Shown: positions 5,690 through 22,323 of the stretch, piece by piece
Layout: each line of letters begins with the position of its first letter
How positions within the stretch are numbered: position 1 is the first letter of the stretch
NCBI RefSeq assembly: GCF_000146505.1
Contig: NC_017448.1
Span: 2,670,001-2,702,000, forward strand
DNA: 32,000 bases
Source: Fibrobacter succinogenes subsp. succinogenes S85
GTDB taxonomy: Bacteria > Fibrobacterota > Fibrobacteria > Fibrobacterales > Fibrobacteraceae
Direction: 5' to 3'
Program-made: the position numbers and the translations under genes
The notes under the pieces: generated by a model
Seen by the model: the letters and a program-made list of their open reading frames with translations, nothing else
Database searches by the model: none
Told to the model about the DNA's origin: nothing

Positions 5690-5794
5690 AGACTTCTTCC
5701 CCTTCAGCTATTAAAAATAATCACATATTTCTAAAAATATCATGGGCCAAATCGTCCTAATCGGAATAATGCACAATTCTTTGCCAGTCAATAG

Positions 5795-5819
5795 AAAAGG
5801 TCTCGGAAAATCCGAGACC
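5795..5819 (-). terminator. intrinsic terminator downstream of the MFS transporter gene
   Basis: GGTCTCGGA (5799-5807), AAA loop, TCCGAGACC (5811-5819). On the minus strand a T run follows (A run 5795-5798 on plus). Confidence 0.7.
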
Positions 5820-5851
5820 TTCGTTGGGTTGATTTATAGCAAATCTTGTGA

Positions 5852-7246
5852 TTACATGGCTTCGAGCTTCTTGCCCTTGGTTTCGTTCACCAGCTTGGCG
5901 ACTAACACAAAGCTTATTGCTGCGAAGGTCGTGTAAATCAAGTAGGTCGGGCCGATGCCGATGCCGTCCTTGCCGACGAGAACCGGGAAAGACCAGCTGA
6001 CCAAGAAGTTTGCACCCCACTGGGCAAGGCCGCATATTGCGATTGCCACGGCACGAATGCGGTTGTTGAACATTTCGCCAAGCATCACCCACATCACCGG
6101 GCCCCATGTTGCGGCAAAGAATGCCACGTAGAAGTTTGCAGCGAGGAGGGCGAAAATACCGCTATTGCCTGTGAGGTTACCGCTAGCGTCGGAACCGAAG
6201 AGGAAGCAGCACGCGAGAATGCCAAGCGTAACGGTCATGCCTGCAGAACCGATGAGCAAGAGCGGCTTACGACCAATCTTATCGATAAGGAGAATAGCAG
6301 CGATAGTCATGGTCAAGTTGATAGCACTGGAAATCACGCTCGTAAGGAATGCATCGCTTTCACCGAAACCGACACTCTGCCAAAGCATGGAACCATAGTA
6401 GAAGATCATGTTAATACCCACGAGCTGCTGGAGAATGGCGATACTGAGGCCAGCCCAGACAATCGGAGCGACGCGCTTTTTGCCAGCGACCGTTTCGAGG
6501 AGGTCAGAAAGCTTGGCCGGCTTGTGAGTCTTGAAGGAGTCTTCAATTTCCTGAGCCTTTTCCTTGATGCCGACGGATGCAATCATCGAAAGCACTTTCT
6601 GAGCTTCTTCCATGCGGCCCTTGCTCACGAGGAAACGCGGGGATTCCGGGAGCTGCCAGGCGGCGACACCGTAGAGGAAAGCCGGGATAGCTTCGACCCA
6701 GAACATCACCTTCCAGGATTCAATGCCCATAATCAAGTTGCTTGCGGAACCCGAAATGCGGACAATGATGTAGTTCGAAAGCAGCGCCACGAAGATACCG
6801 ATAACGATGGCGAACTGCTGCATGGAGCCTAGACGCCCACGCAAATGCGCCGGGGAGGTTTCGGCAATGTAAATCGGGGCGATGATAGATGCTACACCGA
6901 TACCCACACCGCCAATCACGCGCCAAGCAATGAAATCGTAGATGGTGAAGGGGAGGCCAGAACCGATTGCGCTGATAAAGAAAAGGACGGCGGCTGCAAG
7001 CATGCAACGCACACGTCCAAACTTATCTGCCAAGCGACCGGCGAAATATGCACCGATGGCAGCGCCAATCAATGCGAGAGAAACCGCAAGACCAAGCTGC
7101 ATGTCGTTACAATTGAAGTAACCTTTAAGTGCAACGTTGGCGCCGTTAATCACGGACGAGTCAAAACCGAATAGGAACCCTCCGATGGCGGCGGAAAGGG
7201 TTATCATGATGACATGTCCAACTTTGTAATTGTCTTCTACTGCCAT
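5852..7246 (-). CDS. MFS sugar porter family transporter (sugar:H+ symporter)
   Basis: 12-TM protein with sugar-porter motifs GRLADKFGRVR, PESPRFL and NETKGKKLE. The likely start is MAVEDNYKVG (ATG at 7246), which has an upstream AGAGG. The longer ORF to 7306 adds a non-conserved leader. Confidence 0.85.
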   Translation of the reverse strand: MAVEDNYKVGHVIMITLSAAIGGFLFGFDSSVINGANVALKGYFNCNDMQLGLAVSLALIGAAIGAYFAGRLADKFGRVRCMLAAAVLFFISAIGSGLPFTIYDFIAWRVIGGVGIGVASIIAPIYIAETSPAHLRGRLGSMQQFAIVIGIFVALLSNYIIVRISGSASNLIMGIESWKVMFWVEAIPAFLYGVAAWQLPESPRFLVSKGRMEEAQKVLSMIASVGIKEKAQEIEDSFKTHKPAKLSDLLETVAGKKRVAPIVWAGLSIAILQQLVGINMIFYYGSMLWQSVGFGESDAFLTSVISSAINLTMTIAAILLIDKIGRKPLLLIGSAGMTVTLGILACCFLFGSDASGNLTGNSGIFALLAANFYVAFFAATWGPVMWVMLGEMFNNRIRAVAIAICGLAQWGANFLVSWSFPVLVGKDGIGIGPTYLIYTTFAAISFVLVAKLVNETKGKKLEAM

Positions 7247-7308
7247 TTTCGTACCTCTGTTTTTTTTTTGATTTTCAAATGGATTAGCCGCTAATATAGC
7301 TATCAAGA

Positions 7309-7333
7309 AATTGTAAATTCAAGGTTTACAATT
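7309..7333. promoter_or_regulatory. perfect 9-bp inverted repeat AATTGTAAA-N7-TTTACAATT upstream of the sugar porter (candidate operator)
   Basis: Read directly at 7309-7317 and 7325-7333, about 65-85 nt upstream of the 7246 start on the minus strand. Confidence 0.4.
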
Positions 7334-7620
7334 AATCTCGATAGTCCAAAAAGGACTAACGTTTTTCTTACATAAGTCGAAAGTTGTGGCTTCACTGCTC
7401 CCGTCCTATTTAAAAATAGATATATATAATTTTCTTACAATGGGCGAATTTTTTGCAAAAAATGTGAATTTATTTTGGAATATAGGGAAGGTGGGAAGGG
7501 GGTGTTTTGGGCTGCTTTGGCGCGGTGGCGCATTGCCGTATTTTTCGCTATTTTCTAAATTTGCTCACGAAAATTTAAAGCCCGATAGTTGGTGCAAGAC
7601 TGCAACGAACTAGGCGAAAA

Positions 7621-7650
7621 TCTCTCGTCTCTCGTCTCTCGTCTCTCGTC
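7621..7650 (+). repeat. heptamer tandem repeat (TCTCTCG) x4 plus a partial unit in the ileS 5' leader
   Basis: Four exact units at 7621-7648 followed by TC. The repeat ends 26 nt before the ileS ATG. Confidence 0.9.
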
Positions 7651-7675
7651 TAGCTATCATATCAGAGGTCAAAAC

Positions 7676-10600
7676 ATGTTTCGTGAAGTAAAGAAAGAAG
7701 AGACCTTCCCGCAGATCGAAGAGCGCGTGCTCGGATTGTGGGACAAGGACGATAGTTTCAAGAAGTCGCTTGACAGCCGTCCGGAAACCGAACCGTATAC
7801 TTTCTATGATGGCCCTCCGTTTGCAACGGGCCTTCCGCACTACGGTCACTTGCTTGCCGGTACCATCAAGGACATCGTTCCGCGTTACTGGACCATGAAG
7901 GGCAAGAAGGTTCCGCGCGGTTTCGGTTGGGACTGCCACGGTCTTCCGATTGAATCTCTCGTGCAGAACGAACTCGGTCTCGCTGGCGTTGCCGAAATCC
8001 AGAAGCTCGGCGTCGACAAGTTCAACGAAACTTGCCGCGGCAAGGTGCTCAAGTACACAAGCGAATGGAAGAAGACCGTTCGCCGCATGGGCCGCTGGGT
8101 CGACTTCGACAAGGGCTACAAGACCATGGACAAAAACTTCATGGAATCTGTGTGGTGGGTGTTCAAGCAGTGCTTCGACAAGGGCCTTATCTACCAGGGC
8201 TACCGCATCCAGCCGTACAGCCCGGCTCTCGCAACTCCGCTTTCGAACTTCGAAACGAACCAGGGCTATAAGGACCGTCAGGATCCGTCTTTGACGCTCA
8301 TCTTCCCGCTTAACACGGATGAAGCCAAGTTCAAGGACACGAGCATCCTCGTGTGGACGACGACCCCTTGGACACTTTATTCCAACTTCTGCATTGTTGT
8401 TGGCCCGGACATGGACTACAACCTTGTGGAACAGGATGGCAAGAAGTACTGGATTGCCGCAAGCCGTACCGCTGCTTACTTCAAGAACCCGAACATCGTT
8501 GATACCTGCAAGGGCTCTGAACTCGTGGGTAAGGACTACGAACCGCTTTCCCGTATCTCCGATGCATTCGTGACGCCGGACCAGCTGTCCCGCCACTACA
8601 AGATTTACCCCGCCGACTACGTGAGTACCGAAGACGGTACCGGCGCCGTGCATACCGCTCCCTCCTTCGGTGAAGAAGACTTCCAGAAGGGTGCTGAACT
8701 CGACCTCGGCCTTTTCGACCCGCTCGATACCGAAGGCAAGTTCACGGACAAGGTCCCGATGTGGAAGGGCCTTGGTGCGAAGGAAGCCGACAAGGAAATT
8801 ATCCGCTTCTTCAAGGAACAGGGCCGCGTGTTCAAGCAGGACACGATCGTGCATAGCTACCCGCACTGCTGGCGTACCGGCGTTCCTCTGATTTACCGCG
8901 CCCTCAAGACTTGGTTCTTGAAGATTGACGCGCCTGTCACAAGCAAGGACGGTGTGACCAAGACTCTGAAGGAATGGATGGTTGAAAACAACCAGACCGT
9001 GAACTGGGTTCCGGACCACATCAAGAACGGCCGTTTCGGCAAGTGGCTCGAAGGCGCTCGCGACTGGAACCTTTCTCGTAACCGCTTCTGGGGTACGCCG
9101 ATTCCGGTGTGGCTCTCTGACGACGGCGACATGATTGCCGTGGGTTCCATCGAAGAACTCCAGCAGCTCACTGGCGTGAAGCTCGATGACTTGCACAAGC
9201 ACTTTGTGGACAAGCTTACCATCGAAAAGAATGGCAAGGTCTACCGCCGCACGCCGGAAGTTTTCGACTGCTGGTTTGAATCCGGTTCTATGCCGTATGC
9301 AAGCCGCCATTACCCGTTTGAAAACAAGGAACTCGTGGAACGCAGCTTCCCGGCAGACTTCATTGCCGAAGGCCTTGACCAGACTCGTGGTTGGTTCTAC
9401 ACGCTGACCGTGCTTTCTAACGCTTTGTTCCAGAAACCGGCTTTCAAGAACGTTATTGTGAACGGTATTATCTTGGCCGAAGACGGTTCCAAGATGAGTA
9501 AGTCCAAGCGCAACTACCCGGACCCGAACGACCTTATTGAACGCACGGGTGCCGACGCCATTCGCTTGTTCATGATCAACTCCGCCGCTTTGAAGGCTGA
9601 AGACCTCCGCTTCAGTGAAGAAGGCGTGAAGGGCATCGTCAAACAGGTGATGTTGCCGCTCTGGAACGCCGTGGCATTCTTTGTCTCTAACCACAACGCT
9701 GATGCTGCCAAGGGCCAGCTCACGTGGAAGCCCGGTCAGGAAGTGAAGTCTGACAACGAACTGGACCGCTGGATGCTTGCAACGCTGCAGGATCTCGCTG
9801 CCAAGGTTGAAGTTGAAATGAAGGCTTACCGCCTGTACAACGTGGTGCCTGCCGTGATTGCCGCGGTTGATGACCTCACGAACTGGTACGTGCGCCGCAG
9901 CCGCCGCCGCTTCTGGAAGAGCGAAAATGATGGTGACAAGAACGCTGCCTACGCAACCATGTACAAGGTGCTCGTAGACTTCTCCAAGATTCTCGCTCCG
10001 TTCCTCCCGCTCCTCGCCGAAGAAATCTACCAGATTCTCGTGCGCGAAGTCGATGCTAACGCTCCGGTGAGTGTACACCTCTGCGAATTCCCGAGTGCTG
10101 ACAAGTCCCTCATGGACGAAAAGCTTGTGGAACGCATCGCCATGGTGCGTGGCATGGTCGAAATGGGTCGCGTGATTCGTGCAACGAACAACGTAAAGAA
10201 CCGTATGCCGATTGCCAGCATGACGGTCGTTGCTCACGGTAACGAAGAAAAGAACGTTGCTGAAACGATGAAGGACTTGATTCTCGAAGAACTCAACGTT
10301 CGCGAAATGAAGTTCCTCGAAGACGAAACCAAGCTTGTGAAACTCTCTGCAAAGCCGAACTTCCTCGCTATCAAGGCGAAGGGTCCGGATTACGCGAAGA
10401 ACATGAAGGTGATTTCCGCGAAGTTGAATTCGTTGACCGTCGACGAAATCAAGGCTCTGCAGAATGGCGAAACCATCAAGTTCGACTTCGGTGAAGTCGG
10501 TGCCGACTGCCTGATGCTCAACCGCATCGTGGCCGACGGCATGGCCGTGGAAGCCAACCAGCACTTCACCGTGGCTCTGGACCTGAAGATCACGGACGAA

Positions 10601-10861
10601 CTCCGCCGCGCCTGCGTGGCCCGCGAACTCGTGAACCGTATCCAGAACCGCCGTAAGGACCAGAACTACGCCATCACCGACAAGATCGAAGTGACGCTGT
10701 TCTCTGCAAGCGAAGTCTTCAAGCAGGCTGTCGCGGAGAACGAGGCTTACATCGCCGGCGAAACTCAGGCCGTGAAGATTGCCTGGGCGGCCGCTGCCGA
10801 TGGCTTGGAAGCGAATGACGCCGACGGCGAAGCATTCAGTTTCACGACCGTTAAGGCATAA
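7676..10861 (+). CDS. ileS: isoleucine--tRNA ligase, type 2 (eukaryote-like) form, intact, carrying C-terminal tail type A
   Basis: Start MFREVKKEETFPQIEERVLGLWDKDDSFKKS (ATG 7676, AGAGG at 7664-7668). Class I motifs are PHYGHLLAG (HIGH) and KMSKSKRN (KMSKS), plus a WCxSR-like region. The protein is 1061 aa. The 7589 start in the ORF track is a leader extension running through the heptamer repeat. Confidence 0.95.
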   Translation: MFREVKKEETFPQIEERVLGLWDKDDSFKKSLDSRPETEPYTFYDGPPFATGLPHYGHLLAGTIKDIVPRYWTMKGKKVPRGFGWDCHGLPIESLVQNELGLAGVAEIQKLGVDKFNETCRGKVLKYTSEWKKTVRRMGRWVDFDKGYKTMDKNFMESVWWVFKQCFDKGLIYQGYRIQPYSPALATPLSNFETNQGYKDRQDPSLTLIFPLNTDEAKFKDTSILVWTTTPWTLYSNFCIVVGPDMDYNLVEQDGKKYWIAASRTAAYFKNPNIVDTCKGSELVGKDYEPLSRISDAFVTPDQLSRHYKIYPADYVSTEDGTGAVHTAPSFGEEDFQKGAELDLGLFDPLDTEGKFTDKVPMWKGLGAKEADKEIIRFFKEQGRVFKQDTIVHSYPHCWRTGVPLIYRALKTWFLKIDAPVTSKDGVTKTLKEWMVENNQTVNWVPDHIKNGRFGKWLEGARDWNLSRNRFWGTPIPVWLSDDGDMIAVGSIEELQQLTGVKLDDLHKHFVDKLTIEKNGKVYRRTPEVFDCWFESGSMPYASRHYPFENKELVERSFPADFIAEGLDQTRGWFYTLTVLSNALFQKPAFKNVIVNGIILAEDGSKMSKSKRNYPDPNDLIERTGADAIRLFMINSAALKAEDLRFSEEGVKGIVKQVMLPLWNAVAFFVSNHNADAAKGQLTWKPGQEVKSDNELDRWMLATLQDLAAKVEVEMKAYRLYNVVPAVIAAVDDLTNWYVRRSRRRFWKSENDGDKNAAYATMYKVLVDFSKILAPFLPLLAEEIYQILVREVDANAPVSVHLCEFPSADKSLMDEKLVERIAMVRGMVEMGRVIRATNNVKNRMPIASMTVVAHGNEEKNVAETMKDLILEELNVREMKFLEDETKLVKLSAKPNFLAIKAKGPDYAKNMKVISAKLNSLTVDEIKALQNGETIKFDFGEVGADCLMLNRIVADGMAVEANQHFTVALDLKITDELRRACVARELVNRIQNRRKDQNYAITDKIEVTLFSASEVFKQAVAENEAYIAGETQAVKIAWAAAADGLEANDADGEAFSFTTVKA
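10287..10326 (+). repeat. left copy of a 40-nt exact direct repeat inside ileS (island-bounding repeat); near-identity continues for about 95 nt more
   Basis: AAGAACTCAACGTTCGCGAAATGAAGTTCCTCGAAGACGA is identical at 10287-10326 and 13607-13646. The next ~95 nt (10327 onward versus 13720 onward) differ at one position, and then divergence rises sharply. Confidence 0.9.
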
Positions 10862-11043
10862 TCAAGGGTGACTACCGCCCGAGGCGAGTGTAGCGCGAGA
10901 ACTTGTTCTCGCATTACCGAGCCGTTGCGGTAGGGCGCCTTGCGCCAAACTCAGGCTAACGCTATCGTGTGGAAGGATTCTGCTGCTGGCTTGCAGGAAT
11001 CTGATGCAGATGGCGAAAAGGTTGCAGTCGAAGCGGTGAAATA
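10861..11043 (+). pseudogene. orphan ileS C-terminal tail fragment (type B), starting at the ileS stop codon and split by element E1
   Basis: ATCAAGGGTGA [E1] AACTCAGGCTAACGCTATCGTGTGGAAGGATTCTGCTGCTGGCTTGCAGGAATCTGATGCAGATGGCGAAAAGGTTGCAGTCGAAGCGGTGAAATAA is collinear with 14146-14251 of the second copy. It would encode IKGETQANAIVWKDSAAGLQESDADGEKVAVEAVK*. It is not in frame with ileS. Confidence 0.85.
10872..10947 (+). mobile_element. structured 76-nt insertion element, copy E1
   Basis: CTACCGC...GCGGTAG forms a 7-bp outer helix. Conserved AGGCGAG and CCGAGCC strands flank an internal helix capped by a CTTG loop (GCGAGAA CTTG TTCTCGC). A 3' hairpin is GGCGC CTT GCGCC. It is inserted in GGTGA^AACTC of type-B tail sequence, with a 1-nt boundary ambiguity. 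Confidence 0.75.
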
Positions 11044-11066
11044 AATAGACTGTTGCTGACAATTGC

Positions 11067-11103
11067 AAAAGGACCCCGGTTTTTACTGAGGTCCTTTTGT
11101 TTA
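11067..11103 (+). terminator. hairpin plus T-run after the ileS tail stack (possibly bidirectional with the XRE gene)
   Basis: AAAAGGACC (11067-11075) pairs with GGTCCTTTT (11090-11098), followed by GTTT. The loop is large (14 nt), so confidence is moderate. Confidence 0.5.
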
Positions 11104-11135
11104 ATCCAAGACAATGGAATGTGGTTTGCTATAAA

Positions 11136-11531
11136 CTATTTGTTGTTGTGTCCGGATACTTTTGTCTTTTTCAGCTGTTGATGCTCTATATGGCGTAAAT
11201 CCAAAAGTTCTGAAAGGTTTATGCCCAAGGCGTTTGCCATCTCAATCAGAGTGACGAGACGAGGATTTCTTGAACCATTAATGGATCTTGTGATTGTTGA
11301 TTTGGTAAGTCTATTCTCGTAAGCAAATTTTTCAATAGTTGCATAACCCGCATCCTGTATTTTCTGTCGGATGTTCTCTCGAATGTGTGTTATAGTCACT
11401 TCGGGGTCTAGCATACTCCCCAAAGCTAGCGAATAGACCTTCTCGTATAGTTGCCGTATGGCAACTGAATTGGAGGGTTGTATTGAAAACATCTCGTGAA
11501 TCAGCCCGAACCGGACGTTGCCGTTTGGCAT
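11136..11531 (-). CDS. XRE-family helix-turn-helix transcriptional regulator
   Basis: C-terminal HTH_3-like segment (FAYENRLTKSTITRSINGSRNPRLVTLIEMANALGINLSELL). The ATG at 11531 (MPNGNV...) is overlapped by an operator palindrome. The track start at 11534 is a TTG one codon upstream. Confidence 0.8.
   Translation of the reverse strand: MPNGNVRFGLIHEMFSIQPSNSVAIRQLYEKVYSLALGSMLDPEVTITHIRENIRQKIQDAGYATIEKFAYENRLTKSTITRSINGSRNPRLVTLIEMANALGINLSELLDLRHIEHQQLKKTKVSGHNNK
11449..11466. promoter_or_regulatory. operator-like palindrome AGTTGCC-GTAT-GGCAACT inside the XRE coding region
   Basis: Perfect 7+4+7 palindrome with the same TTGCC-N4-GGCAA core as the three sites in the divergent intergenic region. 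Confidence 0.55.
11517..11531. promoter_or_regulatory. operator-like palindrome GTTGCC-GTTT-GGCAT overlapping the XRE start codon
   Basis: TTGCCGTTTGGCA at 11518-11530. Its reverse complement is ATGCCAAACGGCAA, which encodes MPNGN. Confidence 0.6.
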
Positions 11532-11591
11532 CAAAAATCGTGGAAAAAAACTTTTTTTGAATGGTTATTGAAAGAAAATTGGTGAAAAAAT

Positions 11592-11609
11592 GGTTGCCGT
11601 TTGGCAACC
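11592..11609. promoter_or_regulatory. operator-like palindrome GGTTGCC-GTTT-GGCAACC
   Basis: Perfect 7+4+7 palindrome in the divergent XRE / small-ORF intergenic region. Confidence 0.65.
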
Positions 11610-11630
11610 GGTAATGTATATTGACTTGGT

Positions 11631-11646
11631 GTTGCCATTTGGCAAT
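11631..11646. promoter_or_regulatory. operator-like palindrome GTTGCC-ATTT-GGCAAT, directly after a TTGACT hexamer
   Basis: TTGCCATTTGGCAA at 11632-11645, with TTGACT at 11621-11626 immediately upstream. This geometry fits a promoter-occluding operator. Confidence 0.6.
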
Positions 11647-11721
11647 TTGTAAGGTAAATACTAGTCGCGAACGTTCCCACACGGCTAGATATAGGATAAT
11701 TGGGGCAAAAAGGATAATAAT

Positions 11722-11907
11722 ATGATTGGATCTGCAATACAGAAGGGCTCGTCCGTTTATGTGTTTAATGAAAAGGGTGTACAAATATGGTCTAGACCAT
11801 CCGATGCACTTATAGGTTTTACATCATCTTCTGTGACCGTAAGAGTGGGAAATAATGCACGTATATATGATGAAAAAGGGGTTCATAAATACACCAAATC
11901 ACTTTGA
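11722..11907 (+). CDS. small (61 aa) hypothetical protein with an internal repeat
   Basis: ATG is preceded by AAAGGAT. The motif is repeated: SSVYVFNEKGVQI and NARIYDEKGVHKY, separated by GFTSSSVTVRVG. It has no TM segment or signal peptide and is transcribed divergently from the XRE gene. Confidence 0.6.
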   Translation: MIGSAIQKGSSVYVFNEKGVQIWSRPSDALIGFTSSSVTVRVGNNARIYDEKGVHKYTKSL

Positions 11908-12028
11908 TTTTTTCTTTTTTTTGTAAACAATTGAAAACGGGTGCAACTTTGTAGCCGTTTTGGAAAATTGTGAGAAAACAAACGGAATCCTTTACAGGAA
12001 AAAACTGACTAAATCATTGGGAGATGCT

Positions 12029-12790
12029 ATGGCAGCAAATGAATCTAGTTATAAAGATTCTCGTGATGGACATGTATATAAAACAGTTTTCATTGGCAAA
12101 CAGGAATGGTTTGCGGAAAATCTTTGTTTTGAAACATTGGATGAATGTTATTCGTATGACCAAACTGATCCCGGAATCCGTGACGAAATTGACGAACAAG
12201 AGGTGGTTGGTGGATATGGATATCTTTACACCATTGAAGCAGCCAAGGAAGCGGTTCCTGATGGCTGGCGTTTGCCTTCGGAGAAAGATTTTATTCAATT
12301 GACTAGAACGGTGGGTGTTCCTAAAATACAAACAATAAAGTTCCTGAGCAAATATTTAAAAGATAGCCTTTTTAATTGTGATAAAAGACGGGATAACGGC
12401 GTTAAGTGCAATCGCATTCAAAGTCCTTGCTGGAACGATGATTTCAAGGACCCTTTTGGTTTTTCTGCGCTTTATAGTGGATATGGAAGTCTTTTCGCAT
12501 CGGAAAAAGATGGATTCCGTGAGGAGTTTTTGAAATTCAAAGGGCGTGGAGGGTATGAGGAAGAAGATATGCATATTGAGGCTCGCTTGTGGATGTCTTC
12601 GGAACGCAATGGAAAACCTGCATATTTCTTTATAGAAGAAGATAGAGTTGGTTTTTGCGAAAAATTTGACAGGTCCTATAAGAAAATATTTTCGGGTGTT
12701 CCTGGCATGAATTTTGTAAACAAAATGGAAGCGATGGTAGAATCTGGTCGGTGCCTTTGTTCCGTTAGGCTAGTTCGCGATATGAAGTAA
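12029..12790 (+). CDS. Fibrobacter succinogenes major paralogous (FISUMP, TIGR02145-type) domain protein lacking a signal peptide
   Basis: Hallmark motifs are YKDSRDGHVYKTVFIGKQEWFAENL, GYGYLYT..A, PDGWRLPSEKDF, FGFSALYSGYG, ARLWMSSE and CSVRLVRD. ATG 12029 has GGGAG 7 nt upstream. The N-terminus MAANESSYKD is not hydrophobic. Confidence 0.8.
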   Translation: MAANESSYKDSRDGHVYKTVFIGKQEWFAENLCFETLDECYSYDQTDPGIRDEIDEQEVVGGYGYLYTIEAAKEAVPDGWRLPSEKDFIQLTRTVGVPKIQTIKFLSKYLKDSLFNCDKRRDNGVKCNRIQSPCWNDDFKDPFGFSALYSGYGSLFASEKDGFREEFLKFKGRGGYEEEDMHIEARLWMSSERNGKPAYFFIEEDRVGFCEKFDRSYKKIFSGVPGMNFVNKMEAMVESGRCLCSVRLVRDMK

Positions 12791-12830
12791 TCATCTCGTA
12801 TTGAAAAGCCTTAAACATATAGAATGCGAA

Positions 12831-13442
12831 ATGAGCGATAATAAAACTGTTCTTCAAGAGTTTGAATACGAGGATAAGTCTTTTTGGATTGAAGCGAAAA
12901 AATTAAAAAAGGTTCCTGGTTATTATAAATGGTGGGCTAAGGAAAAGCTTGTTAAAGAATTGTTGGATTGGTTAGGAAAAGAAGATCCTAAGTTTAAAAA
13001 ACTTGTAAAGTATGAAAAAATGAAGAGGGAGGGACATTTCGAGTATGACAAAACAAATACATATTGTTGCGTCTATGTAGGAAAGTCGGATAACGTTATA
13101 AGAAGAATTGTAGAAAATCATATTTGTGGCTCAATACGTAATTCAACTATGCGTAGGCATTTGGGGTATATTATACAGAACAAGATTACAAATAAATTTT
13201 TGGATAAAAAATTTTTGGAGAATGCTGTTAACGATATTATTCAACAAATGAAGGTGTCCTTTGTTGAGATAGAAAAAGGCCTAGATCAGGAAGAGACTTG
13301 TCAGATAAACAGAAAGTTGCATATTCTGAATGTTAAGAAAAACGATTATGGGGATAATTATTGTTGCCAACAAGCGAAAATGATAAAATGCAAGTTGGAA
13401 AATATGATGGACAGAAATGGGGATTCTGTTAGGAAAATTTAA
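12831..13442 (+). CDS. GIY-YIG superfamily nuclease domain protein
   Basis: PGYYKWWA (UvrC-like GIY strand), FEY-x9-YVGKSDNVIRRIVENH (YIG plus helix), a conserved Arg region (NSTMRRHLGYI) and a distal acidic/Asn pair (VSFVEIEKG...EETCQINRKLHILNVKKN). An alternative TTG start lies at 12801. Confidence 0.65.
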   Translation: MSDNKTVLQEFEYEDKSFWIEAKKLKKVPGYYKWWAKEKLVKELLDWLGKEDPKFKKLVKYEKMKREGHFEYDKTNTYCCVYVGKSDNVIRRIVENHICGSIRNSTMRRHLGYIIQNKITNKFLDKKFLENAVNDIIQQMKVSFVEIEKGLDQEETCQINRKLHILNVKKNDYGDNYCCQQAKMIKCKLENMMDRNGDSVRKI

Positions 13443-13482
13443 ATCTAAAGGACTACAAATTGCGGGTTATGTTCAATTCGCG

Positions 13483-13606
13483 TTAGGGGTAGTGACCCCT
13501 TGGGGCGGCACTGTGGTGCCGTTTTAGGAGGCGGGTGACGAGCGAAGCGATGACGGCTGCCCCTAAAATATAGCTCGACCCACGTAGTGGGGAACGCCCA
13601 AAAGAA
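13483..13606 (+). other. hairpin-dense junction segment between the island cargo and the displaced ileS fragment (candidate structured RNA or recombination site)
   Basis: Three perfect hairpins are present. They are AGGGGT-AGTG-ACCCCT (13485-13500), CGGCAC-TGTG-GTGCCG (13506-21) and CCCAC-GTA-GTGGG (13579-91). Competing long-range pairings include TTTTAGG (13522-28) with CCTAAAA (13562-68), and GGGGCGGC (13502-09) with GCTGCCCC (13556-63). Confidence 0.4.
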
Positions 13607-14251
13607 AAGAACTCAACGTTCGCGAAATGAAGTTCCTCGAAGACGACAAATGCGTAAGGCGAGAGTCGCGACCGTGCTTGCATGGGCATGACCGAGCCTA
13701 GCATTTGGTACGAAGTGCAAACCAAGCTTGTGAAGCTCTCTGCAAAGCCGAACTTCCTCGCTATCAAGGCGAAGGGTCCGGATTACGCGAAGAACATGAA
13801 GGTGATTTCCGCTAAGCTCAACAGCCTTACGGTTGATGAAATCAAGGCTCTCCAGGCTGGCGAAACCATCAAGTTCGAATTCGGTGAAGTTGGTGCTGAC
13901 TGCTTGATGCTCAACCGCATCGTTGCCGACGGCATGGCTGTGGAAGCCAACCAGCACTTCACTGTGGCTCTGAATTTGAAGATCACGGACGAACTCCGCC
14001 GCGCCTGCGTGGCTCGCGAACTCGTGAACCGCATCCAGAACCGCCGTAAGGACCAGAACTTTGCAATCTCAGACCGTATCAGCATTGAACTTTATTCTGA
14101 AAGCGAAGTGCTGAAGCAGGCTGTGAAGGAAAACGAATCTTACATCAAGGGCGAGACGCAGGCTGACGCTATCGTGTGGAAGGATTCTACTGCTGGTTTG
14201 CAGGAATCTGATGCAGATGGCGAAAAGGTCTTCGTCGAAGCTGTAAGATAA
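13607..14251 (+). pseudogene. ileS: displaced second copy of the ileS 3' end (last ~190 codons, type-B tail), split by element E2
   Basis: Collinear with 10287-10861. The first ~135 nt are nearly identical, then many differences are synonymous (for example KLNSLTVDEIKALQ is retained). The tail diverges to ...ESYIKGETQADAIVWKDSTAGLQESDADGEKVFVEAVR*. It has no 5' part of the gene, and the 73-nt E2 breaks the frame. Confidence 0.9.
13647..13719 (+). mobile_element. structured 73-nt insertion element, copy E2
   Basis: CAAATGC...GCATTTG forms the outer helix, with AGGCGAG and CCGAGCC strands, an apical CCGTG CTTG CATGG hairpin and a 3' hairpin GTAC GAA GTGC. It interrupts GAAGACGA^AACCAAGC, a sequence that is continuous in the intact ileS at 10326/10327. 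Confidence 0.85.
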
Positions 14252-14252
14252 T

Positions 14253-14490
14253 TTCATTGCAAGCGACAACCTCACAAGGCGAGAGCAGCGGCCACGCTTG
14301 CGTGGGCATTGCCGAGCCGAAGAGGTTGGGCACAAAGTGCCAAGTCTTCAAGCAGGCCGTCGCGGAGAATGAAACTTACATTGCGGGAGAGACGCAGGCT
14401 GTCGCCATCAAGTGGGCTGCCGTTGCCGATGGCTTGGAAGCGAATGACGCCGACGGCGAGGCCTTCAGCTTCACGACGGTAAAAGCGTAA
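14253..14490 (+). pseudogene. orphan ileS C-terminal tail fragment (type A'), starting 1-2 nt after the type-B stop and split by element E3
   Basis: TTCATTGCAAGCGA [E3] AGTCTTCAAGCAGGCCGTCGCGGAGAATGAA...ACGGTAAAAGCGTAA is collinear with ileS 10698-10861. It would encode FIASEVFKQAVAENETYIAGETQAVAIKWAAVADGLEANDADGEAFSFTTVKA*. Confidence 0.85.
14267..14342 (+). mobile_element. structured 76-nt insertion element, copy E3
   Basis: CAACCTC...GAGGTTG forms the outer helix, with AGGCGAG and CCGAGCC strands, an apical CCACG CTTG CGTGG hairpin and a 3' hairpin GGCAC AAA GTGCC. It interrupts GCAAGCGA^AGTCTTC, which is continuous in the intact ileS at 10713/10714. Confidence 0.85.
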
Positions 14491-14511
14491 CTCGAAAAAA
14501 TAAAAAATCTG

Positions 14512-14548
14512 AAAAAACGCTCTTTCCTTGCGAAAGGGCGTTTTTTTT
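14512..14548 (+). terminator. intrinsic terminator closing the ileS-derived block
   Basis: CGCTCTTTC (14518-26) pairs with GAAAGGGCG (14532-40) in 9 bp including one G.T. The loop is 5 nt and a T8 run follows at 14541-48. Confidence 0.8.
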
Positions 14549-14738
14549 GTTCAGATTTTCAAATCAGTTTACTTTTTCTTTTTGTTTTTCGATAATAATT
14601 ATGCGTATATTAGCATATATGCACCAGGCGTGCGTGGAAGGGGCCTGATTTTAGGGGACCTGGGGGAGCATCGTCGAAAATGGTGAAATTGCCGATTATG
14701 ATGGAAAAACGGCGTTTTTATTTAAAAAGGAGTCCAAT

Positions 14739-14900
14739 ATGGAAGAAAAACAAATTGAAAATGTTCAGAACCAGAACAACAAACCCGAAACTAACAAAAT
14801 CGTTCTTCCTCCAAAGAAAGGCGATCCCGGTTACGACGCGTTCATGAGGAGACTTTTTAGATCGGCTGCTTCGAACATGCTGAGGGATGACGAAATATAA
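14739..14900 (+). CDS. small hypothetical protein (53 aa), below the ORF-track cutoff
   Basis: AAGGAG lies 7 nt upstream of the ATG. The sequence is MEEKQIENVQNQNNKPETNKIVLPPKKGDPGYDAFMRRLFRSAASNMLRDDEI*. No similarity was recognised. Confidence 0.4.
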   Translation: MEEKQIENVQNQNNKPETNKIVLPPKKGDPGYDAFMRRLFRSAASNMLRDDEI

Positions 14901-14911
14901 AAGTGGGTAGA

Positions 14912-15019
14912 ATGATTATACAAGATTTGAAATCAACGCTTAACAATTTTTGGTTTTGGGCGAGTGTTGGTTTTTTTATATCCACGTTTGTCACAGAGTT
15001 GATTATTGAATTTTGTTAA
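14912..15019 (+). CDS. possible 35-aa hydrophobic peptide
   Basis: MIIQDLKSTLNNFWFWASVGFFISTFVTELIIEFC* has one predicted TM span. It starts 11 nt after the preceding stop and its RBS is weak. Confidence 0.3.
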   Translation: MIIQDLKSTLNNFWFWASVGFFISTFVTELIIEFC

Positions 15020-15089
15020 ATGCTGACACAATGCGTTCAGAAAAACCTCACAAATACAGTTAAAAGCGCACTAGATTCGGAGGTGTTTT

Positions 15090-15644
15090 ATGGAAAAGTC
15101 GACAATCAGCGATGATCAGCAGGCGTTGCACATGGAAGAACGTGCCATTGCTGATATTTACAGGGCCCGTAAGGAACGCCGTAGACGCATCCTTCGCGAG
15201 AATGTGCCTCTATTTATTCGTAATAGGGAGCGCATTCTTGCTGATGATAAGATGGCGCGTTGCCATATAGACTGCATTCGTTTTGGGCTAGCTTATTCTG
15301 GAGAATGGAATGTGCCGGTGGCTTTCTTGGGCGGATTGATTCGCTTGTGGAAGAATCCGACGTTTCAGGCGGAATGCCCCAAGTGTCATGAAACTGCCTA
15401 TTGTACCGGCGGTGGCGGCAGTCCTCTTTCGGGGGCGAAGAGCATTGCCATGACCTGTGGTTCGTGTGGTCATCGGTTTACGACTTCGGCAACGAAGGCG
15501 GATGAGAATGCGATTGCCTTTGGGAGATCCCTGATTGCAGCGATCAACAGCTCAAATGCGGGGCTAGGAAGCGTGGATGATGAATGCCTCCCCATTGAAG
15601 ATGTTGTACATTTATTGGAACTTGAAGAGTCTAACGCGAAATAG
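15090..15644 (+). CDS. hypothetical protein with a putative C4 zinc-ribbon (CPKCH...CGSCGH)
   Basis: Strong GGAGG at 15079-15083. The protein is 184 aa with a basic N-terminal helix (RARKERRRRILREN), two CxxC pairs and an acidic C-terminus. Confidence 0.6.
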   Translation: MEKSTISDDQQALHMEERAIADIYRARKERRRRILRENVPLFIRNRERILADDKMARCHIDCIRFGLAYSGEWNVPVAFLGGLIRLWKNPTFQAECPKCHETAYCTGGGGSPLSGAKSIAMTCGSCGHRFTTSATKADENAIAFGRSLIAAINSSNAGLGSVDDECLPIEDVVHLLELEESNAK

Positions 15645-15673
15645 GCTTTGTATTACACTTTCTTGTTTAATCT

Positions 15674-15721
15674 TTTACACGAAATGTAAAACTTAAAGTT
15701 ATAATTTACAATTTATGTAAA
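15674..15721. promoter_or_regulatory. pair of TTTACA-N5-TGTAAA palindromes (candidate enhancer/UAS) upstream of the dapF sigma-54 promoter
   Basis: TTTACA CGAAA TGTAAA at 15674-15690 and TTTACA ATTTA TGTAAA at 15705-15721. The centres are 31 bp apart, and the proximal centre is 95 bp upstream of the TGGCAC start. Confidence 0.6.
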
Positions 15722-15807
15722 GATTAAAAAGTATGAGAATCCATTAAAAGTCCTGAAAAATGCCGATTTTCGCTTAAATTCGGTAATTTTAACAATTTCT
15801 GTAAAAT

Positions 15808-15823
15808 TGGCACGTTCTTTGCA
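15808..15823 (+). promoter_or_regulatory. sigma-54 (-24/-12) promoter of dapF-dapL
   Basis: TGGCAC-GTTCT-TTGCA is an exact match to TGGCAC-N5-TTGCW. It ends 44 nt before the dapF ATG. Confidence 0.8.
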
Positions 15824-15866
15824 TTAAGGGGGCGATAATCTTAAACTCCTTTAATGGAATGTGCTT

Positions 15867-16720
15867 ATGAATTTTTCAAAATGGACCGGGTTGGGCAACG
15901 ATTTCGTGCTCTTGGAACCGGGTGAGTCGCTGGATTTTAGCAGCGGATTTGAACAGCGTATCATTAAACTTTGCGACCGTCGTTTTGGCATTGGTGCCGA
16001 TGGCGTAGTTGTTGTGACTCCGATGGATGGCGACGGATGCCTCGTGTTAAACGGGATCAGCGAAGGCCCTGTTTCGAAGGCTGTTGCAAATGGCGTGGAT
16101 TTTGAAATGCGCATTTTCAACGCCGATGGTTCTGAGGCGGCGATGTGCGGGAATGCGACGCGCTGTGTCGCGAAGTACATTCAGACTCGCGGTCTTGCAA
16201 AAGATGCAAATACCAAGGTTTTCAATTTGCATACGAAGAGCGGCCTTGTGCGTCCGGCGCTTTTGGATGATGGCCGTGTGTGTGTGGATATGGGGCTTCC
16301 CAGGACGTTCCTAGGCTCTATCAAGCTTACGGCGGACTGCTATGATTTCACGGCCGAAACGGTCTCGATGGGTAATCCGCATGCTGTGATTTTTGTGGAT
16401 GATATTGAAAAGATTCAGCTTGAAAATTGGGGGAGCGTTCTCGAAGTGGATAGGCAGTTCCCTGACCGCTGCAACATTGAATTTGCCCAGGTGGTTGCTC
16501 CCGGTAAGATCCGTATGCGCGTTTGGGAACGCGGCTGCGGTGTGACGATGGCTTGCGGAACTGGTAGCTGTGCGACTCTCGTGGCAGCCCAGCGTACAGG
16601 CCGCGTGGGCGTTGAAGCGGATGTCATCCTGGATGGCGGCACGCTCCACATCAAGCATGAAGAGGACGGTCCGGTGCTCATGACTGGCCCTGCACAGGAA
16701 GTATTTAAAGGAACAATCTA

Positions 16721-16721
<1 letters not shown>
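15867..16721 (+). CDS. dapF: diaminopimelate epimerase
   Basis: Motifs are MNFSKWTGLGNDFVLLE, FNADGSEAAMCGNATRC, MGNPHAVIFVDD and WERGCGVTMACGTGSCA (two catalytic Cys regions). ATG is at 15867; the track start is a GTG two codons upstream. Confidence 0.92.
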
Positions 16722-17960
<1,239 letters not shown>

Positions 17961-19638: not shown

Positions 19639-19673
19639 AAAGGTTGTACGCTTTATGGCGTGCAACCTTTTTT
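19639..19673 (+). terminator. intrinsic terminator after the sigma-54 activator gene
   Basis: AAGGTTGTACGC pairs with GCGTGCAACCTT (one G.T) and is followed by TTTTTTG. Confidence 0.75.
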
Positions 19674-19698
19674 GTATGCTCTGGGGAATGCGAAAAAG

Positions 19699-19727
19699 CA
19701 AAAAAGCCACTCGCCAATGGCGAGTGA
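19699..19727 (-). terminator. intrinsic terminator after glnA (minus strand)
   Basis: CACTCGCC (19708-15), AAT loop, GGCGAGTG (19719-26). On the minus strand a T run follows (A run 19699-19705 on plus). Confidence 0.75.
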
Positions 19728-19767
19728 CTTGTCTTCGGTTTTGATGTGCTTAATTAGAGGCTTGTCA

Positions 19768-21888
19768 TTAGTAGATGAAGAGCATCTCACGGTACTTCGG
19801 AAGCGGCCACTTTTCGTCCGGAACAATCTTTTCGAGAGAGTCCACAACCAAGCGGAGGTCGAGCATACCGTTCAAGATATCTTCGTGCTTGGAAGCGAGA
19901 GCCTTTTCCATCACTTCAATAGCAGCGAGGAGCTTCTTGATGCCTTCGCCAAGCGGCTTGGCGTAAGAATCGAGAGCCGGGAAGCCCTGGTTCAGAGCCA
20001 TTTCGTTGGCCTTGAGAGCGGCGGAGTAAGCTTCGATAGCCTGCGGGAGAATGATGTCCTTGGCCATGTCGCGAGCGATTTCACCTTCGATGTGAATCTT
20101 CTTGTGGTAGTCTTCCATGTTGACTTCGTAGCGGGAATCGAGTTCGCGCTTGTTGAACACGCCGTACTTTTCGAAGAGGGCGACGTTTTCTTTCTTGTTG
20201 AGTGCCTGGAGGGCTTCCATAGTAGTGCGGGTGTTCGGGAGGCCGCGCTTTGCAGCTTCTTCGACCCATTCGTCCGTGTAACCGTTGCCGTTGAAGATAA
20301 CGCGCTTGTGTTCCTTGACGATCTTCTGGAGAAGGTTCTGGAGTTCTTCGTGGAACTTGTCTGCAGGAACGTTGGCGAGCTTGTCGGCGATGATGTCGAA
20401 TGCTTCTGCAACGATCGTGTTGAGGATGACGTTCGGTTCAGAGCAGCTCTGGCTGGAGCCCGGTGCGCGGAATTCGAACTTGTTGCCGGTGAAGGCGAAC
20501 GGAGAAGTACGGTTGCGGTCCGTAGCGTCGCGCGGGAGCGGCGGGAGAGTGTCGGAACCGAGCTTGAGTGCGCCAGCCTGCTTACTGGACTTCGGATCGC
20601 CCTTTTCGAGCTGGTCGACGACGTCAGCAAGCTGGTCGCCGAGGTACATGGAGATGATTGCCGGAGGAGCTTCGTTTGCGCCAAGGCGGTGGTCGTTACC
20701 AGCGCTTGCAACAGCCATACGGAGTAGGTCAGCGTGAGTATCGACGGCGTAAATCACAGCGCAGAGCGTGGTGAGGAAGATGGCGTTCTGGTGCGGGTCC
20801 TTACCCGGGTTCAAGAGGTTGGTCTTACCGTAGTTCACAGACCAGTTGTTGTGCTTACCAGAACCGTTGATGCCTGCAAACGGCTTTTCGTGGAGGAGGC
20901 AGACGAGTCCGTGGCGGTCAGCAACCTGACGGAGGACTTCCATAATCTGCATGTTGTGGTCGCAAGCGAGGTTCACTTCTTCGAACATCGGAGCAAGTTC
21001 GAACTGAGCCGGAGCGACTTCGTTGTGGCGGGTCTTTGCCGGAATGCCGAGCTTCCAGAGTTCCTTTTCCACATCGTTCATGAAGTTCAAAATGCGAGAC
21101 GGAATGCTACCGAAGTAGTGGTCTTCCATCTGCTGGTGCTTAGCCGGAGCTGCACCGAACAAGGTGCGGCCGGCCTGATAAAGGTCCGGGCGCTGGAGGT
21201 AGAAACGCTTGTCGACGAGGAAGTATTCCTGTTCGGCACCGAGCGTGACGGTGACCTTCTGCGGAGCGACACCGAAGAGGCCCATGAGACGGTCGGCGGA
21301 TTTCTGCAAAGCCTGGATGGAGCGGAGGAGCGGAGTCTTCTTGTCGAGTGCTTCACCAGTGTAGCTGCAGAATGCGGTCGGGATGCAAAGCGTTGCACCG
21401 TTGCCGTGACGCTTGATGAATGCCGGAGAGGTCGGGTCCCAGGCGGTGTAGCCGCGGGCTTCAAACGTAGAGCGAAGGCCGCCGCTCGGGAAGGAAGATG
21501 CGTCCGGTTCGCCGACGATCAAGTTCTTGCCGCTGAACGCGAGGATGGCTTTGCCATCTTCGGGTTCAAGGAAGGAGTCGTGCTTTTCTGCAGTAGAACC
21601 GGTAAGGGGCTGGAACCAGTGAGTAAAGTGAGTGGCGCCGCGATCGATGGCCCACTTTTTCATAGCGTGTGCAACTTCGCCTGCGATGCTCGGGTCGAGC
21701 GGTGCGCCGTCATCAATAGTAGCGAAGAGCTTTTTGCAAATGTCTTTCGGAAGGTAGGTGCGCATCGCTTCGGCGTTGAAAACATCTTCGCCGTAAAAGT
21801 CGATGTTTGCAGGTGCTGCCGGCATTACGCCCGTTGCGTTTTCACTTGCGATTTCCTTGATAGCTTTTAATCTGTATTCGTTGCTCAT
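19768..21888 (-). CDS. glnA: glutamine synthetase, type III (GlnN-like, ~700 aa class)
   Basis: The 706-aa length is typical of GSIII. Conserved regions include [29 protein letters not shown] and [15 protein letters not shown] precedes the ATG. Confidence 0.9.
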
Positions 21889-21939: not shown

Positions 21940-22025
21940 AAAGGGGAGACGAACCAGAAAATGGCGAAATCTGCGCGATTTCAAAAATGTAAAAGATTAC
22001 ACTTGATTTTTACTTAGTTGTAAAA

Positions 22026-22071
22026 ATTACAATAAATGAAAAACTTTAATTGAAAATACAAAAAGTGTAAA
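22026..22071. promoter_or_regulatory. pair of degenerate TTTACA-N5-TGTAAA-type palindromes upstream of the glnA sigma-54 promoter
   Basis: ATTACA ATAAA TGAAAA at 22026-22042 (centre 95 bp from the start of TGGCAC on the minus strand) and AATACA AAAAG TGTAAA at 22055-22071 (29 bp further). These match the consensus less well than the dapF and gltB sites. Confidence 0.45.
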
Positions 22072-22141
22072 ACTTAGTGGGTTAAAAGGTTGGTCGGAAA
22101 ATTTCCGAAGATTGTGAAAATTTTCGTGCTGCCGAGTGATG

Positions 22142-22188
22142 TTTACGCGTTGTGTAAAATTACGATATTTCTTTACGATTTTTGTAAA
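22142..22188. promoter_or_regulatory. pair of TTTACG-N5-TGTAAA palindromes (candidate enhancer/UAS) upstream of the gltB sigma-54 promoter
   Basis: TTTACG CGTTG TGTAAA at 22142-22158 and TTTACG ATTTT TGTAAA at 22172-22188. The centres are 30 bp apart, and the proximal centre is 95 bp upstream of TGGCAC, the same spacing as at dapF. Confidence 0.6.
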
Positions 22189-22274
22189 AAGAATACTCTT
22201 TAATGCTCCAATATAAATATGAAAAACCCTAAAAAAACGCCTGTTTTACATTTTATGAGCGGTTTTCCAAAAAT

Positions 22275-22290
22275 TGGCACGGATTTTGCA
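22275..22290 (+). promoter_or_regulatory. sigma-54 (-24/-12) promoter of gltB-gltD-nadE
   Basis: TGGCAC-GGATT-TTGCA, 34 nt upstream of the gltB ATG. Confidence 0.8.
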
Positions 22291-22323
22291 AATAGGAAGC
22301 GCAAAAATTAGGAAAGGATATAT

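Follow-up and report, generated by a model that had tools for sequence, protein, structure and literature searches.

The 3' end of ileS, the isoleucyl-tRNA synthetase gene of Fibrobacter succinogenes S85, appears from sequence comparison to have been displaced fairly recently by a foreign gene end that is itself a mosaic, and a gene island now stands between the new end and the old one. The most probable explanation, which we hold with moderate confidence, is that this island is one layer of a repeatedly used, recombinase-free process of gene-end replacement at the ileS 3' end, driven by homologous recombination and of the kind termed 'insertion with long target duplication'. The locus lies in a 32-kb stretch of S85 DNA (the window; feature positions are window coordinates). 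We compared it with the deposited S85 annotation (CP001792.1, 2,228,994-2,241,179, equivalent to window 5722-17907 at 99.99% identity) and with 78 Fibrobacter-type ileS 3' loci from a scan of one genome per species; L numbers denote compared loci, metagenome loci included. The deposited gene calls match ours: ileS (1061 aa, a tRNA-synt_1/Anticodon_1/DUF5915 protein), a helix-turn-helix (HTH) regulator of 92 aa, p61, a FISUMP protein of 253 aa and a GIY_YIG_2 protein of 203 aa. Two further deposited open reading frames (ORFs) of 187 and 77 aa lie downstream, the 187-aa one with the IleRS C-terminal domain PF19302.

Along the locus, the working ileS with its A-type C-terminus is followed by a copy of a short structured repeat (E3), a B-type ileS fragment, a hairpin, the cargo and a structured module that we call J. 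After J come 40 nt of ileS (codons q110-q122), another repeat copy (E1, 73 nt), ileS from q123 to a B'-type stop, a further copy (E2), an A'-type end and the conserved ileS terminator. The ileS-derived features are listed below.

7676-10861, plus strand: functional ileS, of GPPFATG/KMSKS type, with its ATG at 7676 as annotated and the N-terminus MFREVKKEETFPQIEERV
10287-10326, plus strand: first copy of an exact 40-nt repeat (repeat family D8), the last segment ahead of the putatively imported 3' end
10327-10861, plus strand: putatively imported mosaic ileS 3' end, with the A-type C-terminus ...FSFTTVKA and stop
10944-11043, plus strand: B-type ileS end fragment, q268 to stop (family D3), apparently a nested older remnant carried in with imported DNA
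13607-13646, plus strand: second copy of the 40-nt repeat (D8), the opening 40 nt (q110-q122) of the apparently displaced native ileS end
13720-14251, plus strand: apparently displaced native ileS 3' end, q123 to stop, B' type (...VFVEAVR and stop), frame intact, annotated as a 187-aa DUF5915 protein
14339-14490, plus strand: oldest displaced ileS end, A' type, q251 to stop (family D2, 82% match to 10710-10861; tblastn)
14512-14546, plus strand: hairpin with T-run, the ancestral ileS terminator (inverted repeat I13)

The closest relatives of each piece indicate which gene end is native. The remnant at 13720-14251 is 93-97% identical to the working ileS end of L030 in every bin, and the gene body has the same closest relatives at 92-95% identity. 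Within the working end, 10451-10770 is 97-99% identical to L004; for the parts on either side, no relative exceeds 91% (10327-10450) or 90% (10771-10861). The switch of relative falls at 10326/10327, and identity to all relatives drops directly after 10326. Compared with L030, the codons of the remnant show 19 synonymous and 4 non-synonymous differences, with neither stops nor frameshifts. Because the remnant tracks the relatives of the gene body and the working end is nearest to other lineages, the island appears to have brought a replacement gene end and displaced the old one, as the first-pass annotation had proposed for an element in the 3' end of ileS. We also observed that the working S85 ileS end is a three-part mosaic, and that Fibrobacter ileS has two alternative C-terminal types, A (...EAFSFTTVKA) and B (...EKVFVEAVR), which have been swapped repeatedly (L001-L078).

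The exact 40-nt direct repeat at 10287-10326 and 13607-13646 is real, as first described, but it is best read as the conspicuous portion of a longer, diverged duplication that spans about 575 nt at the ileS 3' end. In a repeat search, 10318-10617 matched 13711-14010 at 90%, and 10944-11072, after the ileS stop, matched 14151-14279 at 80% (D3). The second 40-nt copy is bounded on the left by the joint between J and ileS (13606/13607) and on the right by E1 (13647-13719); with E1 taken out, the remnant becomes collinear again with 10326/10327. Insertion of E1 would therefore make the diverged repeat look like a 40-nt exact one. Exactness itself says little about an att core, because the stretch is 95-100% identical in most Fibrobacter species. 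The further proposal, that the repeats are att sites bounding the element, did not hold: the longer homology is interrupted by E1, the repeats of sister islands measure 0-347 nt and the junctions vary, and we find no short att core of fixed length and position. What we find is a target duplication that exceeds 30 bp and whose counterpart in relatives (L018, L014 and L030) is a single copy. As for the older layers, L062, L045, L050 and L030 have functional B-type ends that match the B-type fragment at 85-91% identity, and the terminator at 14512-14546 is conserved downstream of ileS in L075, L010, L047, L053, L038, L062, L060 and others.

The island is variable rather than core, consistent with the earlier expectation. 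None of the 78 species loci carries the window cargo, and L018, which has the same MFS-ileS-dapF order, shows ileS, about 1 kb and dapF, with neither island nor remnant. The species-representative collection held no island-free strain of the same species; the ileS of L060 is only 91.6% identical. Additional ileS 3' fragments lie behind unrelated DNA in six other species (L046, L032, L062, L068, L024 and L042), with the following cargos in five of them.

L046: Dam-type and N4/N6 methyltransferases, a DUF6996/6997/7226 protein and a DndB-like protein
L032: C5 methyltransferase and an unknown protein
L024: methyltransferase and two HNH nucleases
L068: DUF4062 protein and a large FISUMP protein
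L062: unknown proteins

The J-bearing islands of L075, L031 and L005 also encode FISUMP proteins. A direct repeat is missing from L062; in the other islands a piece of 40-347 nt is repeated that matches the working copy at 94-100%, and in the sister islands the sequence past E matches that copy at 82-87%. The islands compared have no conserved left end in common. The ORFs up to 8 kb downstream of ileS, taken from about 50 loci, form 193 clusters, most of them with a single member; those downstream genes that recur belong to the ordinary chromosomal backbone, and many contigs end inside the ileS 3' region. No recombinase was found in the annotated remnant-bounded or J-bearing sister islands. 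In the window, the larger ORFs scanned against Pfam (15861-16721, 16721-17929 and 22324-26742 lie outside the scan) contain no recombinase, transposase or relaxase, which bears out the absence reported at first pass. The ORFs at 19660-20727 and 20734-21870 were scanned with no Pfam match, the tRNA/tmRNA scan of the window was empty, and Rfam gave no match at the gathering score.

Two side observations concern the hotspot. From the old ileS terminator to dapF, window 14491-15685 is a second AT-rich stretch (GC 0.38-0.49) with ORFs of 53 aa and of 184 aa, the latter Cys-rich with weak zinc-ribbon hits; since L018 and L059 have no counterpart, it is another variable segment of the hotspot. Downstream of ileS in two species, an island start in the DUF4062 gene region is 99.6% identical (L031:1628-2128 and L068:2914-3414), indicative of recent inter-species transfer at the hotspot.

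The cargo begins after a hairpin at its left edge and ends in J.

11066-11099, plus strand: hairpin at the left cargo edge, probably a terminator (inverted repeat I14; a simple terminator scan made no call)
11136-11414, minus strand: XRE/Cro-type HTH regulator, 92 aa (Pfam HTH_3 1.6e-5; PADLOC Control_protein 2.8e-6)
11450-11644, no strand: four operator-like palindromes GTTGCC-N4-GGCA(AC), 14-nt copies GTTGCCNTWTGGCA (family D7)
11722-11907, plus strand: p61, an ORF of 61 aa with two repeats of about 25 aa (..SSVxVYDEKG..), conserved nuclease partner, 100% identical to its deposited S85 counterpart
12029-12790, plus strand: FISUMP-domain protein, 253 aa by annotation (PF09603 4e-15; TIGR02145 6e-25), signal peptide not obvious
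12831-13442, plus strand: GIY-YIG nuclease, GIY_YIG_2, 203 aa by annotation (PF20815 1.5e-13)
13480-13606, plus strand: J, GCGTTAGGG...GGGGAACGCCCAAAAGAA, a folded structured module at the right cargo end, fused to ileS codon q110

The GC content of the cargo is 0.33-0.41, against about 0.51-0.60 in the flanks, so that the AT-richness noticed earlier is borne out. All four genes reported at first pass were recovered by Pfam and ORF analysis. The regulator is an XRE/HTH protein as described, but has 92 aa rather than 132 aa, according to the S85 annotation and the homologue in L081; with this start, all four of the operators noticed earlier, recovered here as 14-nt copies, fall in the divergent promoter region, where one overlaps a promoter-like site found by promoter scan (11594-11622). 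The nuclease keeps the conserved catalytic-type residues GxYKWW..YxYVG..R..NH..N. Its AlphaFold model has a pLDDT (predicted local distance difference test score) of 86.5 and gave no significant PDB neighbour in Foldseek. The family is rare, with 55 relatives among 1.84 billion representatives.

A search for the cassette elsewhere led to L081, whose nuclease is the closest homologue (55% identity) and lies away from ileS. There, a divergent 93-aa HTH regulator, four operators of the same type, a 58-aa two-repeat protein in the position of p61 and the nuclease form a module from which the FISUMP gene is missing. L082 likewise holds the GIY-YIG module away from ileS. Another GIY-YIG homologue sits after a WYL/WCX regulator and a 690-aa protein of unassigned family. 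Only the HTH regulator matched PADLOC-DB v2, with no hits for p61, FISUMP or GIY-YIG, and a PHROGs scan of the cargo likewise returned the HTH alone. Against the NCBIfam phosphorothioate-dependent restriction enzyme, the nuclease scored weakly (E = 0.0026, far below cut-off), and Pfam found no methyltransferase in the cargo. A second sample contains this island too, 97% identical and including the ileS end, E3 and the B-fragment, up to a point inside J where the sequences diverge; about 40 short contigs from other runs also contain it.

Judged by its gene content, the cargo can be read as a self-contained module in which a C-protein-like HTH repressor and four operators would control p61, FISUMP and GIY-YIG. 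Its context points most strongly to a nuclease system of defence or toxin type that is kept under tight repression. The first-pass suggestion of a defence-type module is thus plausible in view of the methyltransferases, HNH nucleases and DndB-like protein in sister islands, the C-protein-like regulator and the WYL-linked homologue, but its effectors have no PADLOC match. The GIY-YIG gene is cargo and not the engine of mobility, because the same architecture recurs with different cargos in other Fibrobacter species.

J itself recurs in several settings. In L062 it is 98-100% identical and abuts an ileS fragment at the same codon, and the ileS C-terminus of that locus is only 68% identical. L032 carries a diverged J with the same joint, so that the identical junction between J and ileS codon q110 is found in the window, L062 and L032 with three different cargos. 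Weaker J copies occur in L032, L075, L031 and L005; J is free-standing, with a terminator of its own, in L075, L031 and L005, starts directly after FISUMP-type stop codons in L005 and L003, and lies upstream of ileS in L003, L016 and L043. In L068, an independent junction between J and ileS at about residue 556 was formed at an ACGCC microhomology. Neither J nor E gave an Rfam hit at an E-value of up to 5 (10800-14700). J may be a small RNA or a 3' untranslated region element. Its copies (L075:4190-4440, L031:7621-7790, L005:14437-14720, L003:7382-7546 and L043:13808-13960) have fixed ends, GCGTTAGGG...GGGGAACGCCCAAAAGAA, and several variable internal hairpins, often with a terminator of their own and often right after FISUMP-type genes. 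An E variant with a co-varied core (GCCGAA...CTGAGGC) lies inside J in L062:10004-10084 and L005:14519-14600; the window J (13560-13570) has the corresponding empty site, CCCCTAAA/ATATAGC, where, as below, the slash marks the insertion point.

The E elements mentioned at first pass were recovered as three copies in the window by a pattern search that gave 3 matches against 0 expected by chance.

10866-10958, plus strand: E3, directly after the ileS stop, at GGGTGA/A in the B-type fragment; 87-bit covariance-model hit, fold z-score -4.3
13647-13719, plus strand: E1, 73 nt, at GAAGACGA/AACC in the remnant, with an in-frame TAG; 75-bit covariance-model hit
14261-14353, plus strand: E2, at GCAAGCGA/A, 14 nt into the oldest remnant; 96-bit covariance-model hit, fold z-score -3.2

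When 24 copies, taken from the window and from related genomes, were aligned, a common architecture emerged. Its elements are an outer stem whose sequence varies, a core that is conserved (AAGGCGAG...CCGAGCC) and contains a tandem G.A motif, an inner hairpin and a second, small hairpin of GCGAAGC type. Pairing holds in 92% of cells, whereas sliding the partners lowers the figure to 28-42%; both members have changed in 19 of the 27 pairs, and one G.U pair is conserved. The three window copies fold alike; their outer stems differ but stay complementary. A covariance model found 62 copies in ileS loci. In metagenomes E is present on more than 120 contigs; of 90 copies inspected there, only 3 had ileS-like sequence nearby. 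The outer stem distinguishes the subfamilies, of which P1, that of E1, occurs at unrelated loci (L111, L137 and L163).

Filled and empty pairs, seen in J, in the repeats of clustered regularly interspaced short palindromic repeat (CRISPR) arrays (L140) and in the ileS 5' intergenic region, define E as a discrete unit of 73-95 nt between ...A and A..., with a duplication of 0-2 nt. Many copies sit in AGACGA/A contexts that resemble the ileS site GAAGACGA/AACC. E is thus dispersed with filled/empty polymorphism, as are REP, REPIN and MITE (miniature inverted-repeat transposable element) types, but with 0-2 nt at A/A it lacks the combination of terminal inverted repeats with a target-site duplication that marks a classical MITE. 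No transposase for E was identified in the 32-kb window or the compared loci, the genome as a whole not having been searched. We regard E as a probable new family of dispersed, covarying, A/A-targeting repeats, which also invades CRISPR repeats; we found no earlier description of Fibrobacter repeats or ileS islands in the literature. E1 itself is best read as a secondary insertion into the remnant, because its subfamily is dispersed and E inserts as a clean, discrete unit at A/A sites.

A mirror image is found at the other end of the gene. Upstream of a working ileS with the variant start MALFREVDKNET..., a short remnant of the MFREVKKEET... start is cut by an inverted E at GGGA/A (L018:7448-7720, L007:7528-7617, L002:480-573, L017:7447-7687, L020:7542-7636 and L022:7490-7584), and L021:2863-3053 holds a longer ileS 5' remnant about 4.8 kb upstream. 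The window ileS start, MFREVKKEET, is uninterrupted, with no upstream E.

Further observations on E were made along the way. Copies lie inside CRISPR repeats in L140:3400-8500 (JAEEGJ010007393.1) and L109 (Ga0310690_10001916), where the repeat is GTCTTAATCTCTCTTGCGAGAGGAATGCTTTTCAGGG and the filled form GTCTTA[E]ATCTCTC...; within a single array, E occupies five or more repeats, with no target duplication. The flanks of E at non-ileS loci were checked for gene-end duplications, a comparison that the CRISPR arrays (L109, L140) confound. Simple repeats of the AGACGA(A/G)AG type are frequent E contexts (L018:7380-7440; L095, L099, L113 and L153), and members of a second repeat family (...GTCATCCTGA...GAAGAC) are often found immediately upstream of E. 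Two candidate identities were rejected. E or J as elements resembling integron attC sites or diversity-generating retroelements was rejected by eye, as the boxes have the wrong polarity and neither reverse transcriptase nor integrase is present; E as an intron or translational-bypass element in the working ileS was rejected because every interruption examined falls in a remnant that has an intact gene next to it.

Overall, the first-pass description stands for the repeat, the AT-rich cargo and the four genes, and is corrected for the extent of the repeat and the length of the regulator. Of its interpretation, the replacement gene end, the variable island and the plausible defence cargo keep support; the att sites do not, and neither does a mobility route through the GIY-YIG nuclease and E, given the identical J junction in L062 and L032 with no GIY-YIG gene, the module away from ileS in L081 and L082, and the dispersal of the E1 subfamily over unrelated loci.

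In the scenario we favour, gene-end replacement by homologous recombination, foreign DNA would recombine with the chromosome inside ileS. The incoming DNA would comprise an ileS 3' portion with its stop, E3, the B-fragment, the terminator, a 2.4-kb AT-rich cargo and J. The foreign 3' end would become the working ileS end from about 10327, and the native end would be pushed downstream from codon q110 and kept as a 5'-truncated remnant, having itself earlier displaced a still older ileS end. The crossover probably used the perfectly conserved 40-nt block. Either of two routes would serve equally: a Campbell-type single crossover of a circle bearing a truncated ileS segment, or a double crossover from a donor already holding the duplicated structure. 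E1 would have inserted later at one of its preferred ...GA/A sites.

Several points weigh against this scenario. The original event cannot be reconstructed, and the Campbell-type and double-crossover routes are not told apart. The J junction at q110, common to three species, could reflect site specificity. With few exceptions, an E copy lies 10-350 nt from the gene-proximal boundary of a remnant, and at both gene ends E is always oriented away from the working ileS. Pure secondary insertion does not obviously predict this pattern, which may stem from local hopping combined with the lethal effect of E landing in the working gene. In L046, identity to the working copy drops at the very position of E, from 95% to 83%. 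As to the cargo, it has no methyltransferase and its PADLOC match is the regulator, so a defence role is suggested by context.

The exact repeat and the shared junction would also suit a satellite-type integrative element, in which a recombinase from host or helper would act on an att core within the 40-nt block (q110-q122), with attP and the replacement end residing in the island. The J junction at q110 is the same in three species whose cargos differ, breaks recur at q109-q122 in remnants or at contig ends (L032, L046, L065, L066 and L069), and the switch from native-like to imported sequence lies at 10326/10327, all of which points that way. Yet no recombinase is present in the scanned window ORFs or the annotated islands, the homology runs well past 40 nt once E1 is removed, the repeated piece ranges from 40 to 347 nt and is absent from L062, the L068 junction differs and was formed by microhomology, and the 40 nt are conserved across species with or without an island; we therefore consider such an element unlikely. 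We are similarly doubtful that E, with J, is the active end of incoming DNA, which an enzyme acting in trans, for instance an HUH/Y1 transposase, would join in E-terminated form at ...GA/A. In that version, folded E at the outer edge would join incoming DNA to ...GA/A sites at both ileS ends, and E, possibly with J, would be a new class of structured mobile element that targets A/A without target duplication and causes recombinase-free gene-end replacement, a proposition that we rate as improbable. It draws on the position of E near the gene-proximal boundary of almost every remnant, pointing outward at both the 3' and 5' ends of ileS, on the sharp identity breaks at E in L046, L032 and the window, and on features recalling single-strand elements of the IS200/IS605 type: no target duplication at A/A, strand specificity and strong structure. 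However, ileS is contiguous across each junction E, indicative of simple insertion of E alone. In addition, 87 of 90 metagenome copies lie away from ileS, the E1 subfamily occurs at unrelated loci, remnants and junctions without E exist (L024; the joints between J and ileS), and no transposase was identified in the window and compared loci.

Homing by the GIY-YIG nuclease, which would cut an island-free ileS in the conserved block so that break repair copies the island and co-converts the gene end, is very unlikely. A GIY-YIG catalytic domain is indeed present, the junction abuts an ultra-conserved stretch of an essential gene, the flanking gene end appears imported, and the 124 nt at 10327-10450, at most 91% identical to any relative, could be an immune target variant. 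But the nuclease is not consistently linked to the insertion site, as a free-standing GIY-YIG homing endonuclease would be: the same junction and hotspot occur with cargos that lack it, and its closest homologues sit at non-ileS sites behind HTH or WYL regulators. Nor would homing alone leave an old gene end; tight repression through four operators is typical of toxin or restriction-modification control, and no homing-type DNA-binding domain was detected in the nuclease. A purely local origin, by intragenomic tandem duplication of the ileS 3' region with divergence, later cargo insertion and no imported end, was already disfavoured and is highly improbable. Tandem duplication can yield direct repeats of a gene end, and nested fragments are present, but the copies differ in their closest relatives (L004-like versus L030-like), the imported part has its own nested B-fragment and E3, also found in L042 and L128, the cargo is AT-rich, and a second sample contains this island and its gene end at 97% identity.

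Two window features stand apart from the island. A 984-aa ORF antisense to ileS (7610-10564, minus strand) is almost certainly a by-product of ileS codon usage and not a gene, and a local GC dip (0.386) at 22001-22500 falls at the 5' end of a 1472-aa ORF region.

Insertion with long target duplication of restriction-modification (R-M) units was reportedly described by Nobusato et al. in 2000. The closest described phenomenon is that of low-GC R-M units that lack mobility genes and have inserted with target duplications of long and variable length (Furuta, Abe & Kobayashi 2010, PMC2853133), and the S85 case would be an unusual variant of it. The likeness lies in an insert below 20 kb (here about 3.3 kb), low GC, nuclease-type cargo, the lack of integrase and transposase, a long variable direct duplication over a gene 3' end, and different cargos substituting at one locus. 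The S85 case differs in that its cargo has no methyltransferase and hence no R plus M pair (sister islands L046, L032 and L024 do have methyltransferases), that the target is the end of an essential aminoacyl-tRNA synthetase gene whose working end is replaced by the incoming copy, that the ileS layers are nested (A'/B'/A+B), with the 5' end behaving likewise in other species, and that the junctions bear a structured mobile repeat. With classical genomic islands or prophages at gene 3' ends or tRNA genes, the locus has in common the replacement end, the displaced old end, direct repeats, atypical GC and presence/absence variation; in contrast to these, S85 and its sister islands have no recombinase, a variable repeat length, extended homology and species-specific junction positions.

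In fungal mitochondria, mobile endonuclease ORFs are said to duplicate and replace the C-terminus of the host gene (Allomyces atp6, by the account of Paquin et al. from 1994). The S85 locus resembles this in having a GIY-YIG ORF beside a chimeric gene with a foreign 3' end and the original 3' end left as a pseudogene, but its nuclease has no consistent association with the junction, and a repressor controls it as part of a multigene operon. The cargo also shares with type II R-M systems of the C-protein kind a small HTH protein matching 'Control_protein', palindromic operators in its own promoter region and a downstream nuclease, and departs from them in having no methyltransferase, a regulator divergent from the operon, and the extra proteins of about 60 aa and of FISUMP type. 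E, for its part, resembles REP/REPIN, ERIC-type and IS200/IS605-derived palindromic elements (Bertels & Rainey 2011, PMC3116915; Di Nocera et al. 2013, PMC3733652) as a dispersed imperfect palindrome of 75-95 nt, often after stop codons, with filled/empty sites and minimal target duplication. It differs from these in its tandem G.A core, its GCGAAGC-type mini-hairpin, stems that covary between subfamilies, insertion into coding-derived remnants and CRISPR repeats, and the lack of a consistent GTAG/CGTC tag.

For annotation, the locus cautions that exact repeats around an island are not necessarily att sites, and the layering at the ileS 3' end explains why Fibrobacter assemblies break at ileS. 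The rare regulator/p60/GIY-YIG module is a candidate defence or toxin system, and E appears to be an undescribed, strongly covarying family of small mobile repeats in a major rumen cellulose degrader, which hits gene remnants, an RNA-like module and CRISPR repeats. If E did cause the joining, which we consider improbable, it would provide an integrase-independent route for defence islands into an essential gene. Under the gene-end replacement that we favour, an essential housekeeping gene would serve as an integrase-free landing pad for accessory and defence islands; every arrival would swap the ileS end and leave a fossil, so that the locus would log successive horizontal transfers.

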